Shown: positions 14,444 through 44,830 of the stretch, in pieces | Layout: each line of letters opens with the position of its first letter | How positions within the stretch are numbered: the first letter of the stretch is position 1 | Assembly (NCBI GenBank): GCA_014879535.1 | Contig: JACSRX010000037.1 | Location: forward strand, 32,629-96,628 | From: Chthoniobacterales bacterium | GTDB lineage: Bacteria; Verrucomicrobiota; Verrucomicrobiia; Chthoniobacterales; JACTMZ01 | Direction of reading: 5' to 3' | DNA length: 64,000 nucleotides | Made by a program: the position numbers and the translations under genes | Notes under the pieces: model-generated | The model's database searches: none | Told to the model about the DNA's origin: nothing | The model's input: only the letters and a program-made list of their open reading frames with translations

Positions 14444-14528
14444 GCCGGCGTGGCGAAATGGCAGACGCAACGGACTTAAAATCCGTTGGGAGGAAACTCC
14501 CGTGCGGGTTCAAGTCCCGCCGCCGGCA
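14444..14528 (+). tRNA. tRNA-Leu (anticodon TAA), class II with long variable arm
   Basis: Hand fold. Acceptor GCCGGCG/CGCCGGC. Anticodon stem ACGGA/TCCGT with loop CTTAAAA. Variable arm GGGAG-GAAA-CTCCC. T-arm GCGGG-TTCAAGT-CCCGC. Discriminator A. CCA is not encoded. Confidence 0.9.
14461..14528 (+). repeat. attL-side direct repeat (3' 68 nt of tRNA-Leu)
   Basis: Recurs at 44016-44083 with 2 mismatches (positions 14465 and 14474). 14475-14528 is identical to 44030-44083. Confidence 0.85.
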
Positions 14529-14595
14529 CTGTATTTATCAGGGTTTACGGGCGTTTTTGGTGGTCGAGTTAAAGGAAATTTTCGGGGGTATGTTT

Positions 14596-21164: not shown

Positions 21165-21183
21165 CCAAACACGACCCGAATTG

Positions 21184-24100: not shown

Positions 24101-24342
24101 TCGTGGCTCCGAAATTTCACCACCTGCCCGATATTTCGAAACTGCCTGATCAGGCAAAGGCTGTGATCATCGATAACACCGATTCCATGTATTATACCCA
24201 ACACCATCCGGAAGCAGGAGCTTGGGTCAAGGCCCATCGTTCCGATGCCACCGATACGCTCGCCCCGGGTGGGGGGCACCCGGCGGTTGGCGCTGATATT
24301 GGTCATGAAACCTTTGCCCAATGGCTTTTGAATTCGAAATGA
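21184..24342 (+). CDS. large secreted protein, unknown function
   Basis: Start at ATG 21184. Signal-like segment RTIAASAAFLILALPAWADP. An SH3b-like stretch is followed by repeated beta-rich segments (HIAYTSSESPGFLKYAVRGSNGWS). The C-terminal part resembles an alpha/beta-hydrolase (LILIGNTDGAELL). Confidence 0.6.
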   Translation: MINPFQPAMSVQLRTIAASAAFLILALPAWADPFDSANPRSTVEDVLKMEPEPQGTLHALVRGRLLGVTGLKMTEGSVSRYKMWLTTMGANPSVHVREGTDEKVPPPEELQAWIGKEIEVSVNVQKWDDAGFSLHRWRDGHEPRLAGQESGDKPTADIHPLAIFADLPRVSVKELRKKDISKDFGAFSGHPVLIIGKLYSVVGEGLSTRNFWMTQNSGKGSVSFSMDPGRDADEIKKLVGKEIAILAGNVGKLPSELRSAVEFDISAENFLDQGRVRPAVFLSADIPAAGAPSVPQHKVLPAAPAGSTANLQPARNIPRQVSSQQTGTLLAPLRVELKHNGKAVGSTTLQPGTSLPIVKSDGARALVKHAGGESWVQAASEWDVTQIADLTADLSGGRELMASVKASLVITNDEPRVAWITPSGLFFAERKANQWEVEKIDGWNLDPEGERRVNCQLYLDSDGKPHIAYTSSESPGFLKYAVRGSNGWSIDTVFRADSYGKNGTAGARLAVGEWKGAIAIASWNAPRASRGEPSLWTSVDESWVEQDLDAESRGGIRTIPRDVLFSRGNALDLLGLSWLDKKVGEGGDTKWWPSFGQSDGQKWVDQKIQAPQQQDVAPHFLASHGEQVYASFSTAFNNCLNLARRSGASWEIMSLDPAKLLDMASEGAPKWSWLIWDSLPFLGGRRDALLAGMDAFAENRIGLLMANGVGDSEGEHAVYYGDVIFPSRCLSEKVAAGFPCAFAFDEGATPHIVFVNAGELCLATRKSAAQIAAGKQEGAGLRLPEAVQNVRPATAKVLPEKIRPGSELERMQRIAALGEPQKFTLPVAGENAQFIRWGSGDKAIVFFTQTPKWTETRSVGRDGEKKGFVKRFNESPSAIASQIDAYAPWLENGYSVIAWDYPRDPQRDNRKEGEIDEAQLHPDHSGAAKSMIEALREKAGLTELILIGNTDGAELLLWDLAALEGDQEAKVILVAPKFHHLPDISKLPDQAKAVIIDNTDSMYYTQHHPEAGAWVKAHRSDATDTLAPGGGHPAVGADIGHETFAQWLLNSK

Positions 24343-25990: not shown

Positions 25991-25998
25991 ACGCCTTG

Positions 25999-28900
25999 AT
26001 GAAGACCTACATGAGAAGCAGAGTGGCGGGATGGGGGCTGGCAATGCTGACCGTCTGTTGCCCGCGTGTGGTTGCGGAGATTCCCTATCCTGTATGGGAG
26101 AGCGTTCCTGTGGACCCCTCGGCAATGCCCGTGATTTTGGACATGAACGACCCCCTGCCTCCCGAAGAGGAGGTGCATTCGCTGATGTTGCAGAGTTGGA
26201 GTGAAGAGAGTTTTGATGAGGAGATCGTTGCGCTCGCCACCGCGCTGGGGGATGGCAGTGCGGCCAGTGGTGAAAACGCGGAGGCCAAAGCGGTCCGGGT
26301 GTTCAACTGGGTTCGCAACAACATTGACTACGATTACTATTACGGATTGCGCAAAGGGGCGGCCCTCACCCTCCTTGAGAGTTCCGGCAATGATTTCGAC
26401 CAATCGGCATTGCTGGCTGAGTTGCTGGTGGCGTCAGGTTATCCGGCATCGGACGTGAAGCTGCTGCTCACCTCGCAGCCGGTGGACTACGTCGATCTTG
26501 TGGAATGGATGGGACTTGCTGAGGAGCCCTATCCGGGCAAGACCTTCCTAGAGGCGAACGGGGTGTCAATAACCAGCGTCGGCTTCCCGGCTGGCACCAG
26601 CGACTTGGTTGCCAAGCAGGCGTTGTTCGGTTGGCAGTTTCTTAACAGTCGTGGACCCGGTAATGACGTATTCCCCAATGGCTCAGAACTTCCCAGCAAG
26701 GCGAACTTGGTCTTCCGACGGATGTTTGTGCGTCTCACCGTGGGAAGTGTGACTTACGATCTCGATCCATCTCGCAAGGTCTATGAGAAGATCACAGCCG
26801 CCAATGCCCTGCCAGCCGCCATCGGGTATGATCGCTCGTCGCTGCTCTCGGCCGCCGGGGGCACCGGTGATTCCAATTCCACGTCCGGGCTCAACCAGAC
26901 CAATATCGCCACGCACTTAACAGCGCGAACCACGCAGCTTCTGGACGAGTTGAGCGGCGCGTGGTCGGGTCTTTCCATGGAGGAGGTGATCAATGGTCGC
27001 CGGATCGTCCGGCAGGATGTTTCCAATCTCGCCGACGCCTCCACTGTGCCCGGCGACTATTACGGTGCAGCGACGCTCTTCGCTTCGGCATCGGACTCCG
27101 CGTTGGCAGGTTACAAGACGACTGTGAATTTCAAGTCCACGGAGGCGGCAGGCTTGGACTACACGATTGCGACCGCGGATTTGAAGGGCCGCAAAATCAC
27201 GCTGACCTTCAGCGGAAACAACGCCGAGTTGCGGCTGGACGATGACGAGGTGGCCGACACCGGGGCTCTGGGGTCCGCGACGGTTATGAACCTTTCGATC
27301 ACGGTGACGCATCCGGGGATGGGGGCGATCAGTAATCCGCCAGCCACCTACCGGAAGACGACCTCGGCGTCGGAGCTATGCTCCTATGCAATCATCTACG
27401 GATTCAACGCTTCGGAGCGGCTGCTGGCCAAACGGCAGGAGCGGCTCAAGGCCTACAAGGATGCCGGGCTGCCCGATGATTCCCGCGAAGTCCGCACGGA
27501 GCTTCTCAACATCATGGGGCTGACTTGGCTTCGCCAGACCGGGATATGCACCCGCGCGCTGTCGGCGCAGAACAACGTGCTGTCTCTCGCGCATCACCGG
27601 TTCGGACGGATGGCGCAGGAGGCGGGTTTCTATGTGGACGTCGGCATCCAGCTTTCCAGTAATTTCCCAGACGACGCCATTCCCGGCCCGAACCATCCCT
27701 CGGCATCCGCTCGCTTCGGTAATGTGTTTCATCTGGGCGCGATGTTCGCGAGTGCGATGGAGCACGGGATCATCGAGCAGATGCAGCCCGGCAGCTCAGC
27801 CGTCTCGACTGTGAACATCCTGAGGCTGGCCAACAGCACATCCGGCAATGCCCTGTATCTTGCCACTTCCTCGAATTGGAGCACCGTTTCACCAATCCTC
27901 GCGACGAACGGTTATACCACAGCGCAGATCAGCGACTTCAATGCCCGCATCAGCGGAGGTGCGCGGATTTTTCTGCCGAAAAACGCGGGCGTCTCCCAGG
28001 GCATCTGGGACGGTTCCGGCTGGGCGATTCGCTCTCCCACCAACGCGGGCATGATCATCAGCGGGGGCTACAGCGGAGGGTATTCGACGACCCCCAGCGT
28101 GGTCAGCTACTCCCCGATCAACACGAGTTATGCATTCAGTCCGGCCTCGATCTATTTCACACCGTCTATTCCTGTAAGCCTGCCTCCCCCGCCCGTATCG
28201 ACGCCAAAGTTCTACGGAAGCGATCCCGTGGACATGGCTACGGGCGCCTTCGTTTATGCCTCGGAGGACCTGGCGACGGGTCTGGAGGCAGCGCCGCGAG
28301 GGCTGGCGTTCTCGCGGTATTATTCCTCGGGCCAATCGGCCCGCGACGAGCAGAACATGGGCCATGGGTGGACGCACAACTTGCACATCCAAGCCGAACC
28401 TCGCACCGCGTCCGACGAGGCGTTGGGGATGGGTTCCCCACAGCAGGCCGCGGCGTTCCTTGTGGCGATGACCGCGGGTGCCGATCTTTACCGGGAGGGC
28501 GCCACCCCCAAGGAATGGGGCGTGGCGGCGCTGGTTGTGGGCTGGTTCGTGGACCAGATGCGCGACAATGCGGTCTCCGTGCGCATGGGCAAGGATGTGT
28601 TCCAGTTCGTAGCTCAGCCCGACGGGAGCTACACGCCACCGCCCGCTTCCACCATGACCTTGGGCAAAACGACGAACTCCACCTACTTCCTGCAGCAGCG
28701 TTTGGGCAATACAGTCCATTTCGATGCCCGGGGCAAGGCATCAAAAATTGTGGATGTTGACGGACGGGAAATGACCTTCATCTACAACTCCAGCACCAAC
28801 TTGGATTACGTGCAGGATCATGTGGGCCGCAGGTTCACCTTCGGCTACGATGGCAACAAGCGCATCACCTCAATTGCCGATTCGACCACCCCGTCGCGCA

Positions 28901-31900
28901 GCGTAAGCTTCGGCTACGACACCAACGGCAACCTCATCACCGCCAGCGACCCAGAGGGCAAGGTTTCGCACTTCGACTACGAGGTGGAAGGCGATCCCGG
29001 CAACACGGTGGCCTCCGAGCACCGCATTGTGCGGCTGCGCAACGACGACGACGAAACCATCACGCAGAACGTCTACGACGCTCTCGGGCGGGTCGAGCGC
29101 CAGTTCCTGCACGGGGACACGAATAAGACATTCCACCTCTTCTACACGGGCAGGGACAACTTCGAGGTGAACCCGGAAGGGGGTGCCACCCACTACTACT
29201 ACGACGAGCGCGGTCGGGCGTCCGGCAGCCGTGACGCCGAAGGCAATGTCACCTCGATGACTTATGATGGCCAAGACCGGATCGTGACTAGAACCTCGGG
29301 GGCCGGGGAAACCACTGTTTACACCCACGACGCCAACCACAACATCACCCGTATCGACCATCCGCGCGGCGGCGGTTCAACATTGTTGGATTACGACAGC
29401 CTCAATCGTCTGGACCTCGCCACCGATCCCAATGGCGTGCAGACCGATTACGTCTATTTTTCCAGCGGCGCCAACGCGGACAAGGACCGGCCGCAAAACG
29501 TGATCCATGCCAAGGGCACGGCGGATCAGTCCACGACCACGTTCTCCTATGTGGCCAGCGGCCCTGCGGTCGGGCGCGTGCAAACAATCAACGATGGCGA
29601 CGGGCTGCTCACGACCAAGACGTATGACTCCAATGGTCACCCGGATGTGACGACCGCCCCGGGCGGATTCGTCACCGATCAGAACTACGATGATAGGGGT
29701 GATCTCTTTTCTGTTACCGATCCGCGCAACAGCACGACAACGCGCACCTACAACAAGCGCCGTCAGGTCACCTCCACGGTTGCAGACTCGGGCGGCATCT
29801 CCGCATCGTCCGATGTGACCTACGACAATCAGGCCCGGGTGGAGACAGTGACGGCCCCGGCGCACAATGGCGGGCAGCGGTCGCAAACTGGCACAACGTA
29901 TTCGCCCACCGACAAGGTGCAGGTGGAGAAGCTCAATACGGTGACCATGGCGGAGACGATCTACGACAGCCGCGATTGGGCGGCGAGTGCCAAGGACGCC
30001 GCCAACCGCACGACCATCTTTGTGCGTGAGGCGAACGGCAATTTGCAGGAGGTCCAGAAGCCCGGCGCGCGCACGACGGCATTTACCTATGATGGCGACC
30101 GCCGTCTGCTGGGGACCTCCAATCCGGGGGCAAACTCCGGTGTGCGGGTTGAGGAGTTCGCCTATGACACCACCTCCGGCGGGCTGCCCCGCACGGTGAA
30201 GACCGAAGCGGACAACTTGACTGTGGTGCAGGAGTTTGACGCCAAGGGGCAGCTCCGCTTCCTCAAGGACCGCAAGGGAGCCACCTTCGAGTTTCGCTAC
30301 GGTGGCTTGGGGCGTCGCACGCATGTGATCCCTCCCGGCAGCGTGGGCACCGTGACCTCCTACACGAAGAACGGCCGCGTGGATGAGATCACCGAACCCA
30401 GCGGGGACACGGCCACGTTCAGCTACAACGCGACCACCGGACGGCTGCAGAGCGTGGCGTATTCCGGCGGAGCGACCGTCAATTACACCAGCTACGACAA
30501 CAACGGCAATCTCCTCGTTCTCAATGAAAACGGGAGCAACCAAATCACGCGGACCTACGACGGGCTCAACCGTGTGATGAGCTACACCGAGGGCGGACAG
30601 ACCATCGGGTATCGGTATTACCCGAACGGGAAGTTGGCCAAGCTCATCTATCCCGGCGGGACGGAAAACGGCGTGGGGCATGTGGAATACCTCTACAATG
30701 CTGAAGGGCGGCTCTGGCAGGTGATCGACAAACTCGACAGCACGGCAAGCCCGAGGGTCACCACCTATGGGTGGAATGACGACGGGAGCTTGGACTCGAT
30801 CACGCGGCCCAACAACACCGTGCGGTCGATCGGCTACGACAGCGTCGGGCGCCCCGAGACCATCGGAGAGAGTGCGGGTGCCGTATCCCTGCTTGCCTTG
30901 GGAATAACGTATTACCCGAGCGATGAAATCAAGACGCTGGACGTGACCCCAGCGCCGCCGATCCGCAAGACGAAGGCAATTCCCGAAGTGGCAATGACCT
31001 TTGGCGCGGCCAACCGTATTCTCACGTTCAACGGGCAATCGGTGAGCCACGATGACGATGGGAACCTGACCGGCGGCCCGCTTCCCGCAACCGGGGCGAT
31101 GACGAGCTACGGCTACGATACACGCAACCGCCTGACCGGCGCAGGCGGCCTCACTTACACCTACAACGCCGAGAACAACCGCGTGGGGATCGGCGGCACC
31201 GAAACCACGACGCTGGTGGTCGATTCGCAGAGCGCCTTGCCCAAGGTGCTCGTGCGGACCAAGAATGGAGTGACCACGCGGTATGTTTACGGTGTCGGGC
31301 TGCAATACGAAGTGAGCAGTGCGGGGGATGCCACCTACTACCACTACGACCAAAGCGGCAACACGGCGGTTCTCACGGACCAATCGGGCGCGGTGGTGGA
31401 CCGGATCACGTATTCGTCTTACGGCACCATCCGCTACCGGCTGGGCAGCTTCGACACGCCATTCCTCTACGGCGGGTTCTTCGGGGTGATGACCGACAGC
31501 AACGGCCTCATCGCCATGCGGGCGCGCTACTACAACCCGCTGACCAAGCGCTTCCTCACCAGCGACCCGGCCTTGGACGGCCTCAACTGGTATGCCTACG
31601 CCGAGGGTAACCCCATCAACTTCGCTGACCCAACGGGGCTGGGGGCGGCCAGTGTCACGGCGGCGTTGAATAGCAGCCTCAATTATCTGGGGATGGTAGG
31701 CGGCGGGGTTGCTTCAGGTCTCAGTCAGGGCTTGGACAACTTCAACAACACGGTGACCTTTGGTTTGTATGACCATCTGGGCTGGTCAAACTCGGGAGCG
31801 AATACCGGGTGGGAACACGATCTGAGCCGTTCGCTTGCGACAATCCCGAGGGATGTTGCTCTCGGAGCCGGGGTTGCCGCTGCCTATCAAAGCATCACCA

Positions 31901-32208
31901 CAACAGCGGCAAGCGTAGTAAATTCTTTGACCACAAGGACGACACTTCAAACTACAATACACGGCGCGGAACGCATTGCAGGAGCAGCTGCAACACGCGG
32001 AGGAGTTCTTAGCGAAGCTGGGGTCGCAGCCGTGCGGCAAGGGGGTCAGGTTATGACGCAGGCCGATGGCGCGACAGTAAGAGTTCTACAGAATCAAACA
32101 GGACGTTTCAACGTTGTAGTTGAAGGTGAACGCGGCATCATAACAACTTTCGAAAATCTTTCTCAAAAATCACTTGATCGTCTCAGTAAAAGTTATGGAT
32201 GGAAATAA
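25999..32208 (+). CDS. Rhs/YD-repeat polymorphic toxin with N-terminal transglutaminase-like region and variable C-terminal toxin domain
   Basis: About 2069 aa. N-terminal signal. Transglutaminase-like segment (VRVFNWVRNNIDYDYYYG...SGNDFDQSALLAELLVASGYPA). Many YD repeats. Conserved Rhs core end: RARYYNPLTKRFLTSDPALDGLNWYAYAEGNPINFADPTGLG. A 187-aa tail follows (31645-32205). Confidence 0.9.
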   Translation: MKTYMRSRVAGWGLAMLTVCCPRVVAEIPYPVWESVPVDPSAMPVILDMNDPLPPEEEVHSLMLQSWSEESFDEEIVALATALGDGSAASGENAEAKAVRVFNWVRNNIDYDYYYGLRKGAALTLLESSGNDFDQSALLAELLVASGYPASDVKLLLTSQPVDYVDLVEWMGLAEEPYPGKTFLEANGVSITSVGFPAGTSDLVAKQALFGWQFLNSRGPGNDVFPNGSELPSKANLVFRRMFVRLTVGSVTYDLDPSRKVYEKITAANALPAAIGYDRSSLLSAAGGTGDSNSTSGLNQTNIATHLTARTTQLLDELSGAWSGLSMEEVINGRRIVRQDVSNLADASTVPGDYYGAATLFASASDSALAGYKTTVNFKSTEAAGLDYTIATADLKGRKITLTFSGNNAELRLDDDEVADTGALGSATVMNLSITVTHPGMGAISNPPATYRKTTSASELCSYAIIYGFNASERLLAKRQERLKAYKDAGLPDDSREVRTELLNIMGLTWLRQTGICTRALSAQNNVLSLAHHRFGRMAQEAGFYVDVGIQLSSNFPDDAIPGPNHPSASARFGNVFHLGAMFASAMEHGIIEQMQPGSSAVSTVNILRLANSTSGNALYLATSSNWSTVSPILATNGYTTAQISDFNARISGGARIFLPKNAGVSQGIWDGSGWAIRSPTNAGMIISGGYSGGYSTTPSVVSYSPINTSYAFSPASIYFTPSIPVSLPPPPVSTPKFYGSDPVDMATGAFVYASEDLATGLEAAPRGLAFSRYYSSGQSARDEQNMGHGWTHNLHIQAEPRTASDEALGMGSPQQAAAFLVAMTAGADLYREGATPKEWGVAALVVGWFVDQMRDNAVSVRMGKDVFQFVAQPDGSYTPPPASTMTLGKTTNSTYFLQQRLGNTVHFDARGKASKIVDVDGREMTFIYNSSTNLDYVQDHVGRRFTFGYDGNKRITSIADSTTPSRSVSFGYDTNGNLITASDPEGKVSHFDYEVEGDPGNTVASEHRIVRLRNDDDETITQNVYDALGRVERQFLHGDTNKTFHLFYTGRDNFEVNPEGGATHYYYDERGRASGSRDAEGNVTSMTYDGQDRIVTRTSGAGETTVYTHDANHNITRIDHPRGGGSTLLDYDSLNRLDLATDPNGVQTDYVYFSSGANADKDRPQNVIHAKGTADQSTTTFSYVASGPAVGRVQTINDGDGLLTTKTYDSNGHPDVTTAPGGFVTDQNYDDRGDLFSVTDPRNSTTTRTYNKRRQVTSTVADSGGISASSDVTYDNQARVETVTAPAHNGGQRSQTGTTYSPTDKVQVEKLNTVTMAETIYDSRDWAASAKDAANRTTIFVREANGNLQEVQKPGARTTAFTYDGDRRLLGTSNPGANSGVRVEEFAYDTTSGGLPRTVKTEADNLTVVQEFDAKGQLRFLKDRKGATFEFRYGGLGRRTHVIPPGSVGTVTSYTKNGRVDEITEPSGDTATFSYNATTGRLQSVAYSGGATVNYTSYDNNGNLLVLNENGSNQITRTYDGLNRVMSYTEGGQTIGYRYYPNGKLAKLIYPGGTENGVGHVEYLYNAEGRLWQVIDKLDSTASPRVTTYGWNDDGSLDSITRPNNTVRSIGYDSVGRPETIGESAGAVSLLALGITYYPSDEIKTLDVTPAPPIRKTKAIPEVAMTFGAANRILTFNGQSVSHDDDGNLTGGPLPATGAMTSYGYDTRNRLTGAGGLTYTYNAENNRVGIGGTETTTLVVDSQSALPKVLVRTKNGVTTRYVYGVGLQYEVSSAGDATYYHYDQSGNTAVLTDQSGAVVDRITYSSYGTIRYRLGSFDTPFLYGGFFGVMTDSNGLIAMRARYYNPLTKRFLTSDPALDGLNWYAYAEGNPINFADPTGLGAASVTAALNSSLNYLGMVGGGVASGLSQGLDNFNNTVTFGLYDHLGWSNSGANTGWEHDLSRSLATIPRDVALGAGVAAAYQSITTTAASVVNSLTTRTTLQTTIHGAERIAGAAATRGGVLSEAGVAAVRQGGQVMTQADGATVRVLQNQTGRFNVVVEGERGIITTFENLSQKSLDRLSKSYGWK

Positions 32209-32389
32209 GCCTCAACAATACGTCTGTTGCTTTTGCGGGGAAAGCATTCCATCTCAGGAATTGCTTTCATTAACTCTCGGTGCGCCGCTTGAAAATTCCG
32301 AAACACAGAATTTATACGCCCATCGCCTATGTCTAAAAACACGGATTCTAAATTCAATTCCCCTTCATCCTGATTTTAACGCCGATTAG
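32195..32389 (+). CDS. candidate Rhs immunity protein (64 aa, Cys/His-containing)
   Basis: ATG at 32195 overlaps the Rhs stop by 14 nt. Sequence: MDGNKPQQYVCCFCGESIPSQELLSLTLGAPLENSETQNLYAHRLCLK... Position and size are typical for cognate immunity genes. Confidence 0.55.
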   Translation: MDGNKPQQYVCCFCGESIPSQELLSLTLGAPLENSETQNLYAHRLCLKTRILNSIPLHPDFNAD

Positions 32390-32495: not shown

Positions 32496-32877
32496 ATGAA
32501 AAGTGCTTTGAAGATTTTGCTGGCAGGCATCATTGGCGTCGTGGTCATGGGGGCCTCTTTGCTTGCTAACCCTATGAAAATGGATCCATCAGAGATTGAG
32601 CAGATGTTGCTTCGCGAAAAGCCGCTCGGAACCCAAAAGGCTGAGATTGAACGCTGGTTGATCCACGAGAAGAAGCTGGCTCCTGTCTCATCGAACGTCG
32701 GTTTCCTACGTCAGGCCCCCGCCAAGCCGCGTGGTCGGTGTGAAGTCGATAAAAGCGAAGCTCGGAGATTACTGGAGTTTTCCATTCCTGAGCACGTCTG
32801 TCGTGGCCTATTGGGGATTCAATGAAAGGGATGAGTTAATTGGAATTTGGGTTTGGAAAACCACGGACGCGCCATAG
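32496..32877 (+). pseudogene. small secreted/anchored protein interrupted by a +1 frameshift at a C5 run
   Basis: The N-terminal frame (MKSALKILLAGIIGVVVMGASLLA...GFLRQAP) degenerates after 32716-32720 (CCCCC). The next frame continues as the plausible sequence VVGVKSIKAKLGDYWSFPFLSTSVVAYWGFNERDELIGIWVWKTTDAP*, ending at 32877. Confidence 0.5.
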
Positions 32878-32961
32878 CTGCCATATCAGCGAACGAGGCC
32901 AAGGGAGATTGACGCCCTCCTCTCGGCACGATGGTGATGTGATAATCAAGACGACTTGGCC

Positions 32962-33255
32962 ATGACCTTAGCTCTATCAATAATCTTGGCGACTTTCTGT
33001 GGGTATATGTTGGGACATCCTCGGGTAGCCCGTTTTGGAAGAATTTTTGGGCTTTTGGGTATTTTTCTGTTAGCGAACCTCCTGAACTGCTTGCCGTTCT
33101 TTACTGCTGATCCGCTTTCTTGGTGGAGAACCTTTTACACCGGCATGATCCAAATAGGTATAGCACTGCTCCTGTTCTTCGTTTTGCCTGCAGCGATCGC
33201 TTGTTGGGCGCGAATAAGAATCCGCACACGAAAAGCCGAAACAGCTTCGCCGTAA
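32962..33255 (+). CDS. small integral membrane protein (about 3 TM), possible orphan immunity protein
   Basis: ATG at 32962. Hydrophobic segments LALSIILATFCGYML, IFGLLGIFLLANLLNCLPFF and IQIGIALLLFFVLPAAIACWA. Basic tail. Confidence 0.45.
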   Translation: MTLALSIILATFCGYMLGHPRVARFGRIFGLLGIFLLANLLNCLPFFTADPLSWWRTFYTGMIQIGIALLLFFVLPAAIACWARIRIRTRKAETASP

Positions 33256-33364
33256 AACGTGCAGAAAACCGAGCGTCAGGGAACCTGCGGTTCCACCCGG
33301 GGACTCCGCCCATCGTCCCAACGCTCAGCGGCGGTCTCTTGGACTGGACTGATAGTGTGTAGAT

Positions 33365-34393
33365 CTAGGTGTTGCTTTCCAGTCCTACTGACACGCTGGC
33401 GGCAGCCCGGGCGAACCCAATAGGAAATTGGGTGTATGTTCGGTAGAGGGTGTCCAAGGGATCAAGGGCAAATGCGCTCTCGATATGTTCTTTTGATTTC
33501 CGGGCTCGGATGAAGTATCGCGGGAGTTGTTGAGATTGAGGAGGATTCCAAGGGCACCAGAGAATGATGGCATCTACGTTGGTGGATTTATCTTCCTTCG
33601 GCTTTCTGTCGGAGGTCTCTCTGGTTGACTGCTCGGTTTCTCCTAATAGTTCCGAATTGCGAGGAGCGAAGTAGTCATCAAGGCAGCGGAGGACTGCGTC
33701 CGTAATACCCCCATAGATAGTGACGGTGCCGACGTTGACTTCGTTTGGTCCGCTCTTGGCAAACCGATGGGAGACTTTGTCGAACAGGCCTTGAACTGGG
33801 AACATCGGATCGACGGCTCTCCTGACATCATTCTTTCGGCGTTTGACTTGGAGGTTCAGGGAGAAACCGTCATCAAAAATGAGGCGCCAGTCATTGTTTC
33901 CGCCGCTCACGGCTTTTGGAGAGGTGTCGACTTTGAATGTTCCCCTCCAACACCCCAACCACCAAATCTCATTTAAGACATTCAGCAGATCCTCTCGGTT
34001 TCGCAGGCGCTTCTTGAAAATTTCGACCCAGTTGTTCCCCAGCTTCTGTTGGCCGATGTCGCAAACTCTGGCGAGGTAGGTGAGCGGCGCGGTATCCAGC
34101 CAGGTGCCTCCATGCCATGCCGTTTTGGAGGGCGGATCAATGACGAGGGAATCTAGGTCGGCATTGTCGATCGAGGAGCTTTCGTCGCCAGTAAAAAACT
34201 CAATCTGCCTAGGGGCAGGCCAAGGGTGGTGCGTGAGGCGTTTTTCGAGTCCGACTCTTTCCATGAAGTCGATAACCAGGGGAGCGCGAGCAGCGGCGAT
34301 TTCCCTGTCGTAGCCGTTATGGGTCAGGGCGGCGATGATGATCTCCTCGCTGGGAATCGAGCCTGAGTCGCCATCTGTGGAAGATTGTTCCAT
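33365..34393 (-). CDS. hypothetical protein (342 aa), possible PD-(D/E)xK-like core
   Basis: Clean ORF with ATG in an AT-richer patch. The segment NNDWRLIFDDGFSLNLQVKRRK resembles a D...(E/Q)xK nuclease core, but this is weak. No other motif recognised. Confidence 0.5.
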   Translation of the reverse strand: MEQSSTDGDSGSIPSEEIIIAALTHNGYDREIAAARAPLVIDFMERVGLEKRLTHHPWPAPRQIEFFTGDESSSIDNADLDSLVIDPPSKTAWHGGTWLDTAPLTYLARVCDIGQQKLGNNWVEIFKKRLRNREDLLNVLNEIWWLGCWRGTFKVDTSPKAVSGGNNDWRLIFDDGFSLNLQVKRRKNDVRRAVDPMFPVQGLFDKVSHRFAKSGPNEVNVGTVTIYGGITDAVLRCLDDYFAPRNSELLGETEQSTRETSDRKPKEDKSTNVDAIILWCPWNPPQSQQLPRYFIRARKSKEHIESAFALDPLDTLYRTYTQFPIGFARAAASVSVGLESNT

Positions 34394-34526
34394 CGGGTGG
34401 TGTCAAAGACTCAACCTGTTAATTGGGGCTCGGATGAGTCAGGTCGGTCTGACCCCGATAGAGGGAACAGATCAAAATGAAGAGTTCAGTTGATCGTGGG
34501 TGATCGAGAAGGAGAAGCAGTGATCT

Positions 34527-34859
34527 TCACGTCACGAAGGTTTTCACCCCTCGCATCGGGTTCAAAACGCTCCCGTCCGGCTGCGGGGCTGGGTTGCAGA
34601 GACGAAGCTCAACAACATCTCGGTCGTCGATGAACAGCGTTGAGAGAGACCTCTTCAAATCCAAATGGCCATCAATCAGCGAGCCTCTCGAGGAGTTGAC
34701 GAAAAAGAAATATTTCAGGGCGCCAAAACCTTCAGGCGAGATATTCGAGTCGTCGAAATTATCCTGAGCAAGCGAGATCAACTCGCCGAGTGTTAAGTCA
34801 AACTCCTCAAGATATACCTCGAGTCCTGATGGAAGAAGTAATGTGGCTTTTTTTTCCAT
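34527..34859 (-). CDS. small protein (110 aa) with ubiquitin-like beta-grasp sequence pattern
   Basis: Start at ATG 34859 (MEKKATLLLPSGLEVYLEEFDLTLGELISLAQ...). It threads onto ubiquitin by eye: PSG.EV.LE, ISPEGF vs IPPDQQ, LIDGHLDL vs [15 protein letters not shown] vs LHLVLRL. It has a 23-aa tail instead of RGG. Confidence 0.45.
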   Translation of the reverse strand: MEKKATLLLPSGLEVYLEEFDLTLGELISLAQDNFDDSNISPEGFGALKYFFFVNSSRGSLIDGHLDLKRSLSTLFIDDRDVVELRLCNPAPQPDGSVLNPMRGVKTFVT

Positions 34860-35631
34860 TGTGGACTTCGTTCCTAAGGAGATTGAATCTTTTCGCTCTT
34901 TTTTGGGCACATTTAGTGCCGATTGACGCCAATTCTTTCCTGCGATCCCATTTCGTCTCCGTTCACTTGTCCGTGGCTTTATTTTACTGCACGCCGATAG
35001 CCACTTGCAAGTGGAACTTGTGTGACCTGCTGCACCATCAACGATCCAGATCATTCGGGTATAACCACTCCAAATTCATTATATTTCCTTTCTTAGCTTT
35101 CGTCAGCTTGTATTGCCGCCATGTCCCCGATACGCGGCTTTTGATCCGCTGGGCTTTCGAGGCTTTCGATTTTCCATCTCACCCGGCCGCATCCGAGGCG
35201 GACTTGGTCGCCCACCTTGAGTGGGTTCTTCGTGAATTTCCGTGGGGCGGCCCCGGCACGGATTGGAGGCTGGCTGGCGGGGGCTCCCGCGACGGGCGCG
35301 AGTTGCTCCCGAACCCTCCAATTTGGAGGGCGGGGGGCGACAGTTGCTCCTCTGCACAATCCCCTCACGCTCAGTGGCTAAGGGTTTGTGCGCCGGATCA
35401 ACTGCCGCCGGAAGTTGGCAGGCGCTCACGCGCATCATGGGCGACGCAAGCGCCTCGCCTCGCTCCGCTTGCTTCGATCTGTTCGTCTCTGTAAGTCTCA
35501 TCCCACGCTTTTTCACGAAGAGCCCTTGAGTGGGGCTGGGCTGACCAGCCCCGAAACGCTTTGCGTGGTCGAGCGTTTGCCCTTCTTCTCATGCTTCAAG
35601 GCTGCGTTGTAGCGGTATGCTTTCATAACTT

Positions 35632-36770: not shown

Positions 36771-37352
36771 TCATAGCTCTCGACTTGTGGCTTTTTGGCC
36801 TAGTATTTTTCTGGCCATACGATCCTTGAGCCTTTGGATTTTGTCCTCTTCGGCTATGACCTCACTGGGCTTGAAGCAGAGGGGGATTTCGACCGTGGTG
36901 TTGCAGAGGTTAATCTTGTAGCCGCCTGCCTCGGGAGCTGTGACGGTGAGGTTTTCGATCCGTTCAATGCCGCTTTCTGCGAAGCTGACGAATCCCGGGT
37001 AGGTGCCTGTGGCAACTTTGAGGTTTTCGCACCCTCGGAAGCTGGCAGCTTCTCCATCGCAGTCGGTTTTAGTGACGGTGAGATTTTCGATCCGTTCGAT
37101 GCCGCTTTCTACGAAGCAGACCCACCCATGGAAGGTGCCGGTGGCAACTTTGAGGTTTTTGCACCCCCAAAAGCCGGCAGCGCTGTCATACTCATTTCTT
37201 CCTGTGAAGTGGAGTAGTGGGTTGAGGTGGGTGATTTTTGAGCCCGCCATGCCGCAGTAGGTAGTAATCTCCACGGGCTCTGTGAGCTTGGAAGCCCAAG
37301 AAGGGTCTTCCTCAATTAGAGCTTTGAACTCTTCTGCGGTAAGCTTTTTCAT
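36771..37352 (-). CDS. BspA-type LRR-like repeat protein
   Basis: 193 aa holding two 44-aa repeats: F(W/R)GC(K/E)NLKVATGT..G.V.F.ESGIERIENLTVT. The FxGCxxL motif is typical of BspA-like LRRs. Confidence 0.5.
   Translation of the reverse strand: MKKLTAEEFKALIEEDPSWASKLTEPVEITTYCGMAGSKITHLNPLLHFTGRNEYDSAAGFWGCKNLKVATGTFHGWVCFVESGIERIENLTVTKTDCDGEAASFRGCENLKVATGTYPGFVSFAESGIERIENLTVTAPEAGGYKINLCNTTVEIPLCFKPSEVIAEEDKIQRLKDRMARKILGQKATSREL
36940..37203. repeat. 2 x 132-bp tandem duplication inside the LRR-like gene
   Basis: GTGACGGTGAG(G/A)TTTTCGATCCGTTC(A/G)ATGCCGCTTTCT(G/A)CGAAGC... starts at both 36940 and 37072. The period of 132 bp equals 44 codons. Confidence 0.75.
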
Positions 37353-39355: not shown

Positions 39356-39613
39356 ATGAACAATACAAAATGCGGCCCCGGGAAAGCCGTAATTTCCCAA
39401 GAGACGGGGAGGGTAGTCGCCCTCGCCACCGACATTGCTGTGGCAATGGGAATTAACCCTGCCGTGCTCACGCTAGGCGTGCAGCGGGGTAACATTCGAC
39501 GCGAAGGCCGCTTCCTCGATGTAGATGACGCGGGGCGATATATCGCTTCCCGCGGCCCGGTCGGGCGGCCGCCGAAACAAAAACAGCAACCAGCGGAGGA
39601 GATACAGCCATGA
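39356..39613 (+). CDS. excisionase/AlpA-like small HTH protein
   Basis: Start at ATG 39356. Sequence ALATDIAVAMGINPAVLTLGVQRGNIRREGRFLDVDDAGRYI resembles excisionase-family HTH proteins. The stop overlaps the primase start (ATGA). Confidence 0.5.
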   Translation: MNNTKCGPGKAVISQETGRVVALATDIAVAMGINPAVLTLGVQRGNIRREGRFLDVDDAGRYIASRGPVGRPPKQKQQPAEEIQP

Positions 39614-41214
39614 GCACCCCCGCAAAATTCGCCCGCTTCCTCGGATCCCCCCGAGAGCGCGCCTATGTGCTCGCGGAAGCGAAGGGGCAGAAAACCGACA
39701 AGGCCCCTGAGCCTACAGACAACATCATTCAGGCAACGGAGGAGTTGAGGGCGGCCGTGGGTGAGGCGCGACAAATGCGCGAGCTCGGCGACCGCACGGG
39801 CTGGCTACGCAACGCGCACGGCCAGCCGACTGCACCATCTGAAAAATACTGGATAGACCGACTCGCTCAGACGGGGGACTACATATATGACCCCTTGGTG
39901 GACGCGTTTTTCGTCTTCTCGGGTGGTCTGTGGTCTCGCAGGACGCGGGCAGAAACCCGCGAGACAATCGACGCATTCATTCGCGTCGAAGTTGGTGAGG
40001 ACGACACCCTCAACCTCGACAAACTCCTAGGAAAAAAACACCTCGACGTCCTAACCGAGAGGCTTACCGGCCACCGCTGCGTGGTGCGCAGGGATGCTTT
40101 CTCGAGTCCTCCTCATGGGGTGGTCTTGTGCGAAAATGGGCGTTTGCAAATCTCCTCAGAGGGCGAGATTGCCTTCGCCGAGGGCAACCCCGGCGAACGG
40201 GGGGACATGCAGCAAGTCCGCTTGCCGCTTGTTTACGACCCGTCGGCGCGGGCAGAACGGTTCGAGGGTTGGCTCTCTCGCATTTTTTGCGGGCGCGAAG
40301 ATGACACCCAAGCCGTCGCCAAGATGTATGGTGCCGCCCTGTGGGGGAGTTGCAGGTGGAAAAAGATGGTGGTGGTCCATGGGCCCTCCAACCTCGGCAA
40401 ATCCCAAATCCCGCTGATAACTGAGAGGCTGATCGGCCGCCAGCGTGTGGCAGAATTTGAAACGCGACGCCTCGGTGAGAAATTTGAAATGCGCCGATTC
40501 GTGTCGAAGGTATTCCTTCGCGCCGAGGATGTTGATGCGGACTTTATGACGCGTGGATATGCGGATGTGCTAAAGCAACTCACCGGGTTTGGCAGCCTGC
40601 GCGTCGAGGGGAAAAACTCACACGAGGAATTCGAGCTCCGCGGTGATAAGATAATCTGCGCCACCTCAAATTTCCGGCTGCGCGTCCGAACGGACGTGGA
40701 CCGGTCAGCGTGGGAAGAGCGCCTCGTCTACCTCGAATGCGACGGCGAACCCTACAGACGAGAGGAGCAAGACACCTACTACGTTGATTCGCTGTTTTCC
40801 AACAGGGAAGAGGCTGCGGGCATTCTCAACTTTGCGTTGAATGGTCTGCGTGAATTGCTGCTCCACGGTTGGGCGAGGTCGGAACTCCAAATGGGCCGCG
40901 TCCGGCGCGTGATGGAGCAAGGCGAGAGCGTGGCGGAATTTGTCCGCGGGTGCATGACTCCGTCGGGGCCGGAGGAAGATCCCGCGAGGCCGGGGACAAC
41001 GATTTCCGAGGCGTGGGCTTGCTACCTCGAATGGGCAGACACCCACAGGGCGGAGAAATGGCCGGAACGCATTTGGCGTGAAATGATCGTCGAAGCGGTC
41101 GAGCAAGTCCGCGGAAAGACCACGTGCAACAACCTGCCACGCGGAGGCACCGCACAGAGGGGTTGGCGGGGAATCACGCTTCGGCGAAGGGAAACCAAAA
41201 AGGAGGAAGCATGA
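39610..41214 (+). CDS. phage/plasmid primase-helicase, P4/D5 family (SF3 NTPase)
   Basis: 534 aa. D5_N-like region followed by Walker A (VVVHGPSNLGKSQ) and the C-terminal P4-family domain pattern. Confidence 0.8.
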   Translation: MSTPAKFARFLGSPRERAYVLAEAKGQKTDKAPEPTDNIIQATEELRAAVGEARQMRELGDRTGWLRNAHGQPTAPSEKYWIDRLAQTGDYIYDPLVDAFFVFSGGLWSRRTRAETRETIDAFIRVEVGEDDTLNLDKLLGKKHLDVLTERLTGHRCVVRRDAFSSPPHGVVLCENGRLQISSEGEIAFAEGNPGERGDMQQVRLPLVYDPSARAERFEGWLSRIFCGREDDTQAVAKMYGAALWGSCRWKKMVVVHGPSNLGKSQIPLITERLIGRQRVAEFETRRLGEKFEMRRFVSKVFLRAEDVDADFMTRGYADVLKQLTGFGSLRVEGKNSHEEFELRGDKIICATSNFRLRVRTDVDRSAWEERLVYLECDGEPYRREEQDTYYVDSLFSNREEAAGILNFALNGLRELLLHGWARSELQMGRVRRVMEQGESVAEFVRGCMTPSGPEEDPARPGTTISEAWACYLEWADTHRAEKWPERIWREMIVEAVEQVRGKTTCNNLPRGGTAQRGWRGITLRRRETKKEEA

Positions 41215-42762: not shown

Positions 42763-43938
42763 TCAGTCGCGAGAGTCGGGTGCAAGCGCCCAAAAGGCTG
42801 CGGCGTCGCGATCGCTGACCGCATCCGCGTAGCTCGCGGCGACCACGGCGGGGGAATTACCCATCTCGAACGCGGTGCGGGCCGTGTCTTTCAATTTTTG
42901 GTGCAAGTAGGTGCCGTAGGAGTGACGCAAGGCGTTCTGTGGTATCTTCGCTCCAGCCAAGTTTTCCAACTTGGCGAGCTCTTCGAGCCATGCCCATACG
43001 CGAGCCTTGAACGCGGGTCGCGCGGCGAAGATCGGGCCGGTTTTCGGCCGCTTGCTTGGCAACCAACGGAGCAAGGCCGGCTCGACGGAAACCGACCTCG
43101 GGCGGCCGGTCTTGGTGCGTTGCACGCGGAGGGTGTCGGCCTTGAGGTCTTCCCACTTCGCCAGGGCCATTTCATCGTTTCTGAGGCCAGCGAAAAGTTT
43201 AAGGGCGAGGGCGGGGAGAAGATCGGGGCGCTGTTTCTTGGCTGCGAGCAGCAGCGCACGGCACTGGGGAACGGTGAGGATTTCGGGGCGGCCGCGGACA
43301 ACGCGTGGGCGCGTGATTGCCTCGGCGGGGTTGCGGGTGAGCCAGCCTTGCTTTTTGGAAAACTCGGCCAAGACGGAAAAATACCGCAACCGCTTGACAC
43401 GTTGCGATTGGCTTGGCGCCTTGCCCTTCGCGTCTTTGCCGTCCACGGTGATCCGCAGTTCTTCGGCGGTGAGGGCGGACAAGCTTTTCTTTTCATGCCC
43501 GCGTAGCAGGCGGGCGAGCTTGGCTTTGAGCTCGAGACAATGGCGGCGCGAGAGGCCGGCGTCGAGGCGATCCGCGTAGAGTGCGGCGATTGCTTCGGCA
43601 ACCGTTTTGGATTCGCCTGCCGCGTGTTGGCTCTCCCAAAAAAATGCCGCCTCAACCAACGAAGCGCGGCCGCTGAGTTTCGCCAAGGCGGCCTTGGCGT
43701 CGGCAATTTGGAGGGGGGAGAGTTCGGCGGCGACGGCCTCCGCTTGTAAAGGGTGCAGCTCTGCCCACCGTTCATCAATCCAAGCGCGGGCGGCGTCGAG
43801 TGAAGCGAAGCCGCGCCGTTCCGGGGCCATGCCGGGGCCGAGGAACTTGGCGGAGAGCCAGACGCGATAGACAGTGCGGGATGGCGTCGGGTGCTCGATG
43901 AAGATACGCGAGCCGAGGGGGAGCTTGCGCTTTGCCAT
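42763..43938 (-). CDS. int: tyrosine recombinase / phage-type integrase
   Basis: 391 aa. The C-terminal catalytic region shows GLRNDEMALAKWEDL (Arg), ALRHSYGTYLH (His-x-x-Arg-region context) and AASYAD (Tyr). Lies next to the right att repeat. Confidence 0.85.
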   Translation of the reverse strand: MAKRKLPLGSRIFIEHPTPSRTVYRVWLSAKFLGPGMAPERRGFASLDAARAWIDERWAELHPLQAEAVAAELSPLQIADAKAALAKLSGRASLVEAAFFWESQHAAGESKTVAEAIAALYADRLDAGLSRRHCLELKAKLARLLRGHEKKSLSALTAEELRITVDGKDAKGKAPSQSQRVKRLRYFSVLAEFSKKQGWLTRNPAEAITRPRVVRGRPEILTVPQCRALLLAAKKQRPDLLPALALKLFAGLRNDEMALAKWEDLKADTLRVQRTKTGRPRSVSVEPALLRWLPSKRPKTGPIFAARPAFKARVWAWLEELAKLENLAGAKIPQNALRHSYGTYLHQKLKDTARTAFEMGNSPAVVAASYADAVSDRDAAAFWALAPDSRD

Positions 43939-43981
43939 GGGCGGAAGAAAACTTCCCCCAAATGGAAAAGAAAAGGTTTTT

Positions 43982-43998
43982 CTCCACTTTTTTCCACT
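43982..43998 (+). promoter_or_regulatory. putative integrase arm-type site, right arm
   Basis: CTCCACTTTTTTCCACT is 16/17 identical to 14596-14612. It lies between the int start (43938) and the att repeat (44016). Confidence 0.4.
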
Positions 43999-44015
43999 TT
44001 CTTTTCTTTACCTAC

Positions 44016-44083
44016 GCAGGCGCAACGGCCTTAAAATCCGTTGGGAGGAAACTCCCGTGCGGGTTCAAGTCCCGCCGCCGGCA
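44016..44083 (+). repeat. attR-side direct repeat (partial tRNA-Leu 3' copy)
   Basis: 68 nt matching 14461-14528 with 2 mismatches. It lacks the acceptor 5' strand and D-arm. One mismatch would disrupt the anticodon stem. Confidence 0.85.
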
Positions 44084-44098
44084 GCCGGCAATTGCACG

Positions 44099-44830
44099 AT
44101 GTCCAACACTCCCATGAACCGACGCACATATCTTCTCCGCAGGAGCAGACACCTGCTGCCAATCTGCGGTGTCCTGCTCCTGTGCATATGCCCCGCGAGC
44201 CTGTTGGCGGGTAGCAGATGGAAGGAACTGACCGACTGCCGGTTGATTCCACAGGATTACAACGACGGCGACTCCTTTCATGTGGATTGCCAAGGCAAGG
44301 AATACATCTTCCGCCTGTATTTCGTGGATGCACCCGAGAGTGATGACTCCATTCCAAGCCGGGTCGCTGAGCAGGCGGCTCACTTCAAGAAGTCCGCTTC
44401 AAGAATGCTGGAGGTGGGGCAACATGCAAAAAAAGTCACGGCGCAGTTGCTTTCCCGTCCATTCACGGTCTTGACGACATTCGAGGACGCCAAGGGGCGC
44501 AGTCAGCTCCCGCGTGAGTTTGCTTTCGTGACCACCGGGGACGGCAAGGATTTGGGCGAGGTTTTGGTGAGCCAGGGTCTGGCCCGCTCCTTTGGTGCCC
44601 CGGCGAGCCCCCCCGGAAAGACGGAGGAGGAACTCCGCTCGAAATACGACCACCTCGAACGGACCGCGCGGCGCGAAAGACTGGGCGCATGGGGCAACGG
44701 GGACGAGTTTCGTGGGGATCAGCCGGCCGAGGCCAAAGCGGCGGAGGACAAACCGGGCGAGACTCATGAGGATTTCACGGACAAAACCATGGACAAGCTC
44801 CAGTCCATGACACAGGAGTTTGTTGAGTAG
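44099..44830 (+). CDS. SNase-like (thermonuclease family) exported protein, chromosomal paralog of 20274-21164
   Basis: Start at ATG 44099. Signal/anchor LLPICGVLLLCICPASLLAG. SNase pattern DGDSFHV...FRLYFVDAPES. By hand alignment about 79/126 core positions are identical to the island copy. No GcrA-like tail. Confidence 0.65.
   Translation: MSNTPMNRRTYLLRRSRHLLPICGVLLLCICPASLLAGSRWKELTDCRLIPQDYNDGDSFHVDCQGKEYIFRLYFVDAPESDDSIPSRVAEQAAHFKKSASRMLEVGQHAKKVTAQLLSRPFTVLTTFEDAKGRSQLPREFAFVTTGDGKDLGEVLVSQGLARSFGAPASPPGKTEEELRSKYDHLERTARRERLGAWGNGDEFRGDQPAEAKAAEDKPGETHEDFTDKTMDKLQSMTQEFVE

Follow-up and report, generated by a model that had tools for sequence, protein, structure and literature searches.

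Does a pair of neighbouring genes on a bacterial mobile island, one for a ubiquitin-like (Ubl) protein and the other for a protein of no named family, constitute a minimal conflict or immunity module, or have two independent genes come to lie side by side? The question is raised by a 64,000-nucleotide stretch of contig JACSRX010000037.1 from the metagenome-assembled genome of a soil bacterium of the Chthoniobacterales (here called the window), in which a small gene for a 110-residue protein is followed on the same strand by a large gene for a 342-residue protein; the products are identical to the hypothetical proteins IAE97_07465 and IAE97_07460. Our analysis indicates that the small protein is the free-standing form of a Ubl-plus-tail module which elsewhere forms the C-terminus of putative immune effectors, that the large protein most likely has a PD-(D/E)xK nuclease fold, and that the pairing of the two genes is not conserved. 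The reading that we favour, and to which we give about an even chance, is that the island carries as cargo two accessory genes that are adjacent but mobile independently of each other, the Ubl module serving conflict effectors in interaction or regulation without being conjugated, and the large product being nuclease-like. The features on which the argument turns are listed below; L and P numbers are our labels for the loci and related proteins compared.

34527..34859, minus strand: small gene (110 residues), open reading frame for a predicted ubiquitin-fold (beta-grasp) protein with a family-specific C-terminal extension
34530..34598, minus strand: coding region of the 23-residue tail (C88 to T110, CNPAPQPDGSVLNPMRGVKTFVT), the most conserved stretch of the family
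34394..34526, minus strand: spacer of 133 nt between the small and large genes (131 nt in L001)
33365..34393, minus strand: large gene (342 residues), open reading frame for a protein of the QVK subfamily in an uncurated nuclease-like family of PD-(D/E)xK type
34981..35106, minus strand: two candidate promoters of sigma-70-like type ahead of the small gene, at 35106-35078 and 35010-34981, matches in a consensus scan that do not in themselves indicate function

The initial annotation had described two same-strand open reading frames (34859 to 34527, 110 residues, and 34393 to 33365, 342 residues) in a visibly AT-richer patch, and coordinates, strand and composition all hold. The guanine-plus-cytosine (GC) content is 49.5% in the small gene and 53.8% in the large gene, against 57.2% in the surrounding island and 63-65% in the chromosomal flanks, and the two genes form the lowest-GC patch of the 29.6-kb island and of the window as a whole. 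The mechanically called reading frame of the small gene reaches 35054, which would give 175 residues; this longer reading was ruled out by homologue lengths and fusion boundaries. A length of about 110 residues and a start of the form M-x-KKATLLLP are found in 18 of 20 small-protein homologues, and homology in the fusion proteins described below begins at the same residue, so the start at 34859 is correct. The ratio of non-synonymous to synonymous substitution is 0.020/0.52 = 0.04 for the small gene relative to its L001 orthologue, and 0.073/0.289 and 0.145/0.81 for the large gene relative to L001 and L004 (range 0.18-0.25). Both open reading frames are genuine genes under purifying selection. 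The consensus scan found no promoter-like or terminator-like site in the spacer between them, and co-transcription of the pair in the window is likely, on what is weak evidence.

An AlphaFold2 model of the small protein, built with 20 homologues as input, reached a predicted local distance difference test (pLDDT) score of 83.4 and a predicted template modelling (TM) score of 0.75. Its elements follow the ubiquitin-like beta-grasp order, b-b-a-b-b-(3-10 or a)-b, with strands at residues 5-8 and 14-17, a helix at 24-35, strands at 51-55 and 60-62, a short helix at 72-75 and a final strand at 82-87. A Foldseek search of the PDB with this model returned 92 matches at E <= 1e-3, headed by ubiquitin, designed ubiquitin variants, SUMO, a UBX domain, the Ubl domains of USP11 and TBCE, and 8tyx_A, a bacterial Ubl from a Ubl-deubiquitinase complex; the top matches have E values of about 1e-4, a probability of 1.00 and, for single-domain ubiquitin-like chains, target-normalised TM-scores of 0.63-0.77. 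The earlier threading of the protein onto ubiquitin by hand agrees segment by segment with the predicted secondary structure, and the ubiquitin-like beta-grasp fold is thus confirmed at the level of the model.

Sequence searches tell us that this fold is carried by what appears to be a new family in the ubiquitin-like beta-grasp superfamily. The small protein has no match in Pfam, NCBIfam, PADLOC or PHROG, and the family profile has none among PDB sequences. A ThiS or MoaD sulfur carrier was considered and rejected: the Pfam models for ThiS and MoaD do not match even at E <= 1, there is no terminal GG, and none of the loci shows the linkage to ThiF/MoeB and to thiamine or molybdopterin biosynthesis genes that such carriers have. 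Between 20 and 40 homologues were found, all in Verrucomicrobiota or metagenomes. The genome and metagenome scans, aimed at the Ubl family, yielded at least three loci each; at least three genomes carry the module, each at one locus, with further copies possible elsewhere in those genomes. The viral-contig scan, which covered the Ubl module only, the wide nuclease-like alignment being too diverse for it, found no relative, and plasmids hold no relative of either protein. The module appears to be restricted to Verrucomicrobiota, with the 110-residue product as its free-standing form.

Conservation in the family is highest beyond the beta-grasp core. A proline-rich linker leads into the tail, with the consensus PxPxPDG-x-VLNPMRGV-x-x-FV-x; P90 is invariant, and C88, P92, D95, G96, L99, N100, P101, M102, R103, G104 and V105 are nearly so. 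The model places short strand bridges at 98-99 and 108-109 (pLDDT 59-71), which suggests, at moderate confidence, that the tail forms a hairpin. The protein of the window ends ...RGVKTFVT, so that the nearly invariant G104 lies six residues before the end and 17 residues past the last core strand.

Bacterial Ubl proteins have so far been understood through their conjugation machinery, as in Bil, Bub and CBASS type II systems. The small protein could be a modifier of the same kind, with the tail a propeptide cut after R103-G104 to expose a C-terminal glycine, and with the fusions cargo carried to targets; we regard this as improbable. Its ubiquitin-like fold would fit, as would the invariant R86 in the ELRL strand, which resembles the LRL of ubiquitin, the nearly invariant RG six residues before the end, the 481-aa ThiF-family gene in one locus (L010), and the fact that longer proteins always end with the module, as conjugation chemistry requires. 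The Bil and Bub Ubls described by the Corbett and Sorek laboratories likewise carry diverse N-terminal domains before a single C-terminal beta-grasp (PMC11601603), include 8tyx_A among the closest structural matches of the small protein, and share with it a setting in mobile or defence contexts. Their operons, however, encode an E1, an E2 and a deubiquitinase, and the small protein has no detectable sequence similarity to them, a conserved 23-residue tail and a last residue other than glycine. The residues after G104 (V-x-x-F/Y-V/I) are conserved, which we judge unusual for a discarded propeptide, and G104 sits in an NPMRG loop between the two predicted tail strands, at 17 residues from the last core strand rather than the four seen in ubiquitin; this placement suggests a structural turn rather than a cleavage site.

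The neighbouring genes point the same way. Linkage to E1, E2 or JAB genes, which characterises the conjugatable Ubl systems (Bil, Bub, CBASS type II and Aravind-type), is lacking here: no E2 or JAB gene was found in the Pfam lists of ten other loci or in Pfam scans of the larger island reading frames of the window, which makes 11 contexts in all. A single ThiF-family (E1-like) gene occurs among them, in L010, where three genes and 2.5 kb separate it from the small gene and the two are read from different strands; tblastn with this ThiF sequence found no match in the window or the other loci. The initial annotation was therefore right that the 110-residue gene of the window has no E1, E2 or JAB gene beside it, the Pfam scans and the ThiF tblastn both being negative there. 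These observations, with the non-glycine end and the conserved tail, would be consistent with a module that works without conjugation. As a separate observation, at 10867-12710 of L010 (minus strand) the 481-aa ThiF-family gene comes after a 118-aa gene that matches no family, and Mg-chelatase-like fragments, a DUF2806 gene and a Peptidase_M78 gene lie nearby.

What, then, might the module do? Eight fusion proteins, seven from protein searches and one from an open reading frame in L013, carry it at the extreme C-terminus with the tail intact, and their N-terminal parts are of at least four unrelated kinds. In P0122 a Cap12/Pycsar-type TIR domain and a middle region precede the Ubl module, and the TIR assignment is strong (PF10137, E 1e-30; NCBIfam Cap12, 5e-33; PADLOC models for CBASS TIR and PycTIR, 1e-35 to 5e-49). 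A transmembrane-anchored domain of about 190 residues forms the N-terminal part of P0123, P0124 and the fusions in L011 and L013, a beta-rich domain of about 170 residues that of P0028, P0121 and P0125, and a domain of about 290 residues with no assigned family that of P0126. Most neighbourhoods of Ubl-encoding genes are of mobile or defence type, and in every case the GC content of these genes is below that of their own locus. The transmembrane-anchored domain also occurs free-standing, without the Ubl module, in metagenomic proteins of about 235 residues (P0128 to P0140). A reading of P0126 as a trypsin-like protease, made by eye from SAAH and GISGG, was unconfirmed by Pfam, NCBIfam, PADLOC and PDB searches and was dropped.

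The locus L022 (10001-13585) connects the fused and the separate arrangements. There the gene for P0126 is followed after 97 bp by a gene for a Cap12-like TIR protein of 294 aa and then by a 461-aa gene without assigned function, and the cluster adjoins a helix-turn-helix (HTH) gene and an integrase gene. In our reading, made by eye rather than from an alignment, the TIR protein of L022 closely resembles the TIR half of P0122, and L022 would then be a fusion/fission link between the Ubl module and Cap12-like TIR domains. The three-gene cluster of L022 is also, in its own right, a candidate self-contained defence system without a cyclase.

The nearest known counterparts are the CBASS Cap12 and Pycsar PycTIR effectors, whose models the TIR half of P0122 and the TIR neighbour in L022 match strongly, and in which a toxic TIR and a non-catalytic domain are likewise joined in one polypeptide. 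They differ from P0122 in that the partner there is an unassigned middle region with the Ubl and tail, not a STING, SAVED or cyclic-nucleotide-monophosphate-binding (cNMP-binding) domain; there is no cyclase gene nearby in L020 or L022, and the small protein of the window has no TIR. The effector-associated domains (EADs) of NTP-dependent conflict systems (Kaur, Burroughs, Iyer and Aravind 2020, PMC7159879) offer a second parallel, as small non-catalytic terminal modules on interchangeable effectors (TIR, transmembrane) that are also found free-standing. They are defined by paired copies, on a core NTPase/vWA component and on the effector, usually in adjacent genes (PMC7159879). A search of all reading frames of the window and 26 loci with a hidden Markov model (HMM) of the present module, by contrast, found exactly one copy per locus, which ruled out an EAD-type paired adaptor; there is also no core component, and the fold is beta-grasp, not death-like. 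A limited literature search found no description of a Ubl module on Cap12-type TIR effectors without conjugation enzymes.

We favour a non-covalent regulatory role because a constant C-terminal module with interchangeable effector N-termini is typical of conflict systems, and because CBASS and Pycsar TIR domains are joined to a controlling sensor. In this scheme the Ubl-plus-tail would be a protein-interaction or regulatory module that controls or targets the toxic effector domains of conflict systems. It would stand where the TIR effectors of CBASS and Pycsar have a SAVED, STING or cNMP-binding sensor, and its conserved tail is a candidate for the part that binds. In the window, where the module is free-standing, it might act on a partner in trans or on the adjacent nuclease-like protein. 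A bolder version, which we think unlikely as a whole, is that the beta-grasp-plus-tail is a conjugation-independent sensor or gate in bacterial immunity, restraining suicide effectors (a TIR NADase, a membrane-active domain or a split PD-(D/E)xK nuclease) until an invader provides a trigger, for example by binding or cleavage at the tail, and that the window pair is its minimal two-gene version.

The second gene has to be considered on its own terms. The parts of the large protein to which we refer are as follows.

33719..33997, minus strand: predicted nuclease core, residues ~133-225 (helix with E142, strand from D168, strand with Q182-V-K184, helix, strand with N220)
33986-33988, minus strand: codon 136
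33968-33970, minus strand: codon E142
33890-33892, minus strand: codon D168
33848-33850, minus strand: codon Q182
33842-33844, minus strand: codon K184

No sequence match to the large protein was found in Pfam, NCBIfam, PADLOC, PHROG or the PDB. It has 11 close homologues, and an exhaustive profile search extended the family to 90 cluster representatives, mostly of 300-340 aa and matching over the central 200 residues. In a 59-sequence family alignment the catalytic signature of PD-(D/E)xK enzymes is present: E142 in 58 sequences, D168 in 57, E182 in 56 and K184 in 57, the window itself having Q182-V-K184. Other nearly invariant positions in that alignment include H136, W145, W169, F211 and N220. 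The AlphaFold2 model has a pLDDT of 63.6 overall and higher values in the core, and its elements (helix 133-146, strands 153-156, 169-173 and 178-185, helix 187-194, strand 218-225) run in the order a-b-b-b-a-b, with E142 on the first helix, D168 just before strand 169-173 and Q182-V-K184 in strand 178-185. This is the layout of the canonical PD-(D/E)xK core, a helix followed by three strands with the aspartate at the start of strand 2 and the lysine at the end of strand 3 (PMC7026639). Foldseek with this mediocre model gave no significant match (best E 0.026); its weak lists from the PDB and BFVD consist mostly of PD-(D/E)xK proteins (EcoO109I, NucS/EndoMS, BsmI, Mus81, Exo5, Can2, McrC, a Cas4-like protein, LmuA, MmcB-like proteins, Mrr, Exo VIII and RecU). 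The weak D...QVK nuclease-like core that the initial annotation had picked out in the 342-residue protein thus proves to be a variant of a family-wide E-D-ExK signature.

Compared with established members of the superfamily (type II and IV restriction endonucleases, NucS/EndoMS, Cas4, McrC), the large protein shows the same helix-borne acidic residue, strand-2 aspartate and strand-3 (E/Q)-x-K (PMC7026639). It differs from them in having no sequence match to a curated family or solved structure, in its N-terminal helical region and long low-confidence insert, and in the lack of a conserved methyltransferase or other partner. In the window subfamily, to which Q182 is confined, position 182 is always glutamine and the conserved His136 is replaced by leucine or phenylalanine. 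The invariance of E142, D168 and K184 in this subfamily, down to 48% identity, argues that the active site is still selected, and a glutamine-for-glutamate variant of the motif occurs in the active enzyme BtgZI (PMC4081073). The large product is most likely a PD-(D/E)xK-fold protein, and probably acts as a Mg2+-dependent nuclease of restriction or defence type; its family appears to be a new, uncurated one within the superfamily, with a QxK subfamily. Its relatives have Hachiman, Mrr and NERD genes as neighbours in L007, and an integrase, a DEAD/MZB helicase and an SNF2 gene in L004; standing alone, as they do, in defence islands and integrative elements, they would suit a restriction or defence nuclease.

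Longer members of this nuclease-like family were also seen, in P0039 (618 aa) and P0069 (740 aa, Prosthecobacter sp.), both with the nuclease-like match at the C-terminus. A scan of the 59 members matched DUF4143 in two and AAA_14 in one, members not specified, and the cluster name of P0069 is 'predicted AAA+ superfamily ATPase', which points to ATP-dependent versions of the nuclease-like domain.

Whether the two genes form a unit can be judged from the loci in which either family occurs. These are listed below, equivalent loci together.

L001 to L003: both genes (96% and 85% identity), order and spacing as in the window; convergent with a different Rhs gene
L004 to L006: large gene only; integrative element with a DEAD/MZB helicase gene, an SNF2 gene and an integrase gene
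L007 and L008: large gene only; beside Hachiman, Mrr and NERD genes
L017 and L018: large gene only (truncated); carbohydrate-utilisation genes
L019: large gene only (truncated); among transposases
L009: small gene only; in an array of small genes of unassigned function
L010 (= L012): small gene only; after a spermine-synthase-like gene
L014: small gene only; then an unrelated 344-aa gene
L024: small gene only; overlaps a lexA-like gene
L025: small gene only; divergent from an HTH_3 gene
L011 (= L026): Ubl fusion; Mtase/Mrr gene, Y1 transposase and nucleotidyltransferase nearby
L013: Ubl fusion; genes for a Trypsin_2 protein, UvrD helicase and PIN-PhoH alongside
L020: Ubl fusion (TIR); housekeeping genes
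L022: Ubl fusion; then a Cap12-like TIR gene, integrase nearby

By tblastn and HMM searches of all reading frames in these loci, the two families occur together only in the window and in L001 to L003, and no locus holds a second copy of either. The partner is missing from four other large-gene loci and from nine other Ubl-module loci. At the nucleotide level, blastn shows that the window and L001 share a block of 1.59 kb at 87.8% identity (33272..34862), which holds exactly the two genes: it begins 3 nt upstream of the small-gene ATG and ends 93 nt past the large-gene stop. L004 shares with the window only 33411-34416, that is, the large gene, and L024 and L014 share only the small gene. Gene-sized blocks of shared DNA and independent occurrence together indicate that the two genes behave as separately mobile units. 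The conserved Ubl-plus-partner cassette envisaged at the outset was not borne out; across the loci with enough flanking DNA to compare, the pair is confined to the window and one close relative, and each gene otherwise stands without the other. The pairing would be at most a recent combination in one lineage, not a conserved two-gene system. A role in conflict does remain plausible, because the module is fused or adjacent to Cap12/Pycsar-type TIR effectors elsewhere; it is the two-gene module that finds no support.

The pair might instead be a working two-gene defence or abortive-infection module, with the Ubl as sensor or gate and the nuclease-like protein as effector, and would then correspond, in split-gene form, to the effector-Ubl fusions. 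In favour of such a module is the layout of the window, with both genes on one strand, a 133-nt spacer without a terminator or promoter match, and a block shared with L001 that is exactly the two genes with unrelated DNA on either side; the fused or adjacent effector-type domains at other loci and the Mrr, SNase and Rhs genes of the host island are also in keeping with it. Set against these are the restriction of the pairing to two close relatives, the absence of the small gene beside the next relative of the large gene (75% identity, in L004) and three others, and the absence of the large gene, even by HMM search, from the nine Ubl-module loci. Each gene, moreover, also moves as its own gene-sized block, and the conserved DNA just upstream of the large gene (~23-45 nt) travels with it in L004, where there is no small gene. 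Neither protein of the window matches a PADLOC-DB 2.0 model (E <= 1), only the TIR halves of distant fusion relatives doing so. We therefore think that such a module is rather unlikely, if less so than the other alternatives.

One further neighbour of the Ubl gene recurs. In L014 a 344-aa gene (8599-9633) of a ~340-aa family without Pfam, NCBIfam or PADLOC match lies 40 bp downstream of the small gene, and a homologue (53% identity) lies at 5647-6669 in L009, 1.3 kb upstream of the small gene there; the two-gene module could draw on this second pairing as well. A relationship of this protein to the 342-residue protein of the window was looked for and rejected, there being no match by BLAST or by the family HMM.

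Both genes are carried by an integrative island, the ends and principal genes of which are listed here.

14475..14528, plus strand: attL, the 3' part of a tRNA-Leu(TAA) gene (tRNA at 14444-14529), left island end, where GC falls from 0.65 to 0.57
14933-15904: Mrr-type endonuclease gene, in the island
20274-21164, plus strand: SNase-domain gene with a GcrA-like C-terminus, inside the island
25996-32208: Rhs gene (transglutaminase-like, DUF6531 and RHS repeats)
39610-41214: D5-type primase gene
42763-43938, minus strand: integrase (tyrosine recombinase) gene, abutting the attR copy
44030..44083, plus strand: attR, direct repeat of the 3' part of tRNA-Leu, right island end, adjoining the integrase

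The repeat is exact over 54 bp (14475-14528 and 44030-44083) and extends to about 68 bp if two or three mismatches are allowed. With the att repeat, the abutting integrase and the drop in GC, both genes can be assigned to the cargo of a 29.6-kb tRNA-Leu integrative island, which also encodes a TSP3-repeat protein, an HTH protein and a DUF3102-like protein. Their location had been given as between the Rhs locus and the mobility backbone, and so it is: the Rhs gene is on one side, and the HTH, D5-type primase and integrase genes are on the other.

The proximity of the Rhs gene invites the suggestion that the pair are orphan immunity or toxin cassettes of a polymorphic-toxin locus. In the window, as in L001, the 3' end of an Rhs gene is closely followed by the pair, the neighbour on the upstream side of Rhs is likewise conserved, and a low GC content, shared here by the Rhs 3' end and a 71-aa reading frame, is typical of swapped toxin and immunity modules. 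Rhs and the pair, however, are read in opposite directions, and the position directly downstream of Rhs is taken, on the Rhs strand, by three other small reading frames; by the Pfam lists, none of the 13 other distinct loci has an Rhs or other polymorphic toxin adjacent; and the fusions have their effector-like domains N-terminal to the module, unlike the layout of immunity proteins. On balance we consider this origin highly improbable. The end of the Rhs gene merits description in itself (within 31609-32389): its last 600 nt have a GC content of 53.5% (49.5% at third codon positions) compared with 60% in the Rhs body, the 71-aa reading frame (32174-32389; GC 41%) overlaps the Rhs stop, and together they have the appearance expected of a swapped C-terminal toxin plus immunity module. 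Two further small reading frames follow on the Rhs strand (32496-32825 and 32956-33255, the latter hydrophobic).

The contexts of the free-standing small gene suggest yet another explanation, in which the small protein is an accessory factor in stress response or regulation and has nothing to do with either inter-genomic conflict or the large gene beside it. In L024 (7162-8333) the small gene overlaps by 4 bp the stop of a lexA-like gene of 280 aa (LexA_DNA_bind and Peptidase_S24), and this pair is divergent from genes for proteins of 167 aa (no Pfam match), 501 aa (IMS-family) and 1050 aa (DNA polymerase III alpha), which we read as an imuA-imuB-dnaE2 cassette; the arrangement suggests SOS-coupled expression of the small gene in that genome. 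The small gene also follows two STAS genes by 12 bp in L001 and is divergent from an HTH_3 regulator in L025. These contexts share no common pathway, though, while a GC content below that of the surroundings in every locus and movement as gene-sized blocks are the behaviour of mobile accessory DNA, and the TIR fusions point to conflict functions; we accordingly doubt this explanation, which seems to us to have only a small chance of being right. The LexA box, which we take to be TGTTC-N4-GAACA, is absent upstream of the small gene in the window, and it is absent in L024 as well, beside that locus's own lexA, so that its absence is uninformative.

We return to the reading of two separately mobile genes with a non-conjugated Ubl module, against which several points have to be counted. 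The regulatory role is argued from the domain architecture of about 40 sequences from uncultured bacteria, and the literature contains no characterised or named member of either family. Free-standing small genes occur without an obvious effector nearby in L024 (lexA), L010 (spermine-synthase-like) and L001 (STAS). The QVK subfamily has lost two family-wide residues (H136 to leucine or phenylalanine, E182 to glutamine), and its chemistry or substrate could be altered, or the protein partly or wholly inactive; its structural model, as given above, is mediocre (pLDDT 63.6) and without a significant match (best E 0.026). The genomic contexts cover only five of the 11 relatives of the large gene (P0004 to P0008 and the identical P0001 were left out), and the two-gene block shared with L001, the conserved spacer and the lack of a terminator between the genes leave room for a functional pairing.

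The analysis defines two families that are absent from Pfam, NCBIfam, PADLOC and PHROGs: the Ubl-plus-tail family of Verrucomicrobiota and, in defence islands, a family of PD-(D/E)xK type with about 90 clusters. A Ubl module that is repeatedly joined to immune effectors, with no E1, E2 or deubiquitinase gene nearby, would suggest that prokaryotic conflict systems have also taken up the ubiquitin fold for regulation or sensing of a non-covalent kind. Should the two genes be no more than neighbours, what is gained is a routine improvement in the annotation of an under-studied phylum. Both families are small, with members in uncultured bacteria only, and what we say of their function is inferred.

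Three other features of the island deserve mention. Two very large reading frames, 16327-19878 (minus strand, 1183 aa) and 21094-24342 (plus strand, 1082 aa), have no Pfam or PHROG match and lie between the Mrr-type gene and the Rhs cluster, beside the SNase-domain gene; they may represent an uncharacterised defence or conflict locus. A second SNase-domain reading frame (43874-44830, plus strand) spans or abuts attR, its listed start being upstream of the att repeat and its true start uncertain. Finally, a 193-aa reading frame (36771-37352, minus strand) with no family match carries, twice in tandem, a motif of about 40 residues, GC-x-NLKVATGT-x-x-G-[WF]V-x-F-x-ESGIERIENLTVT.

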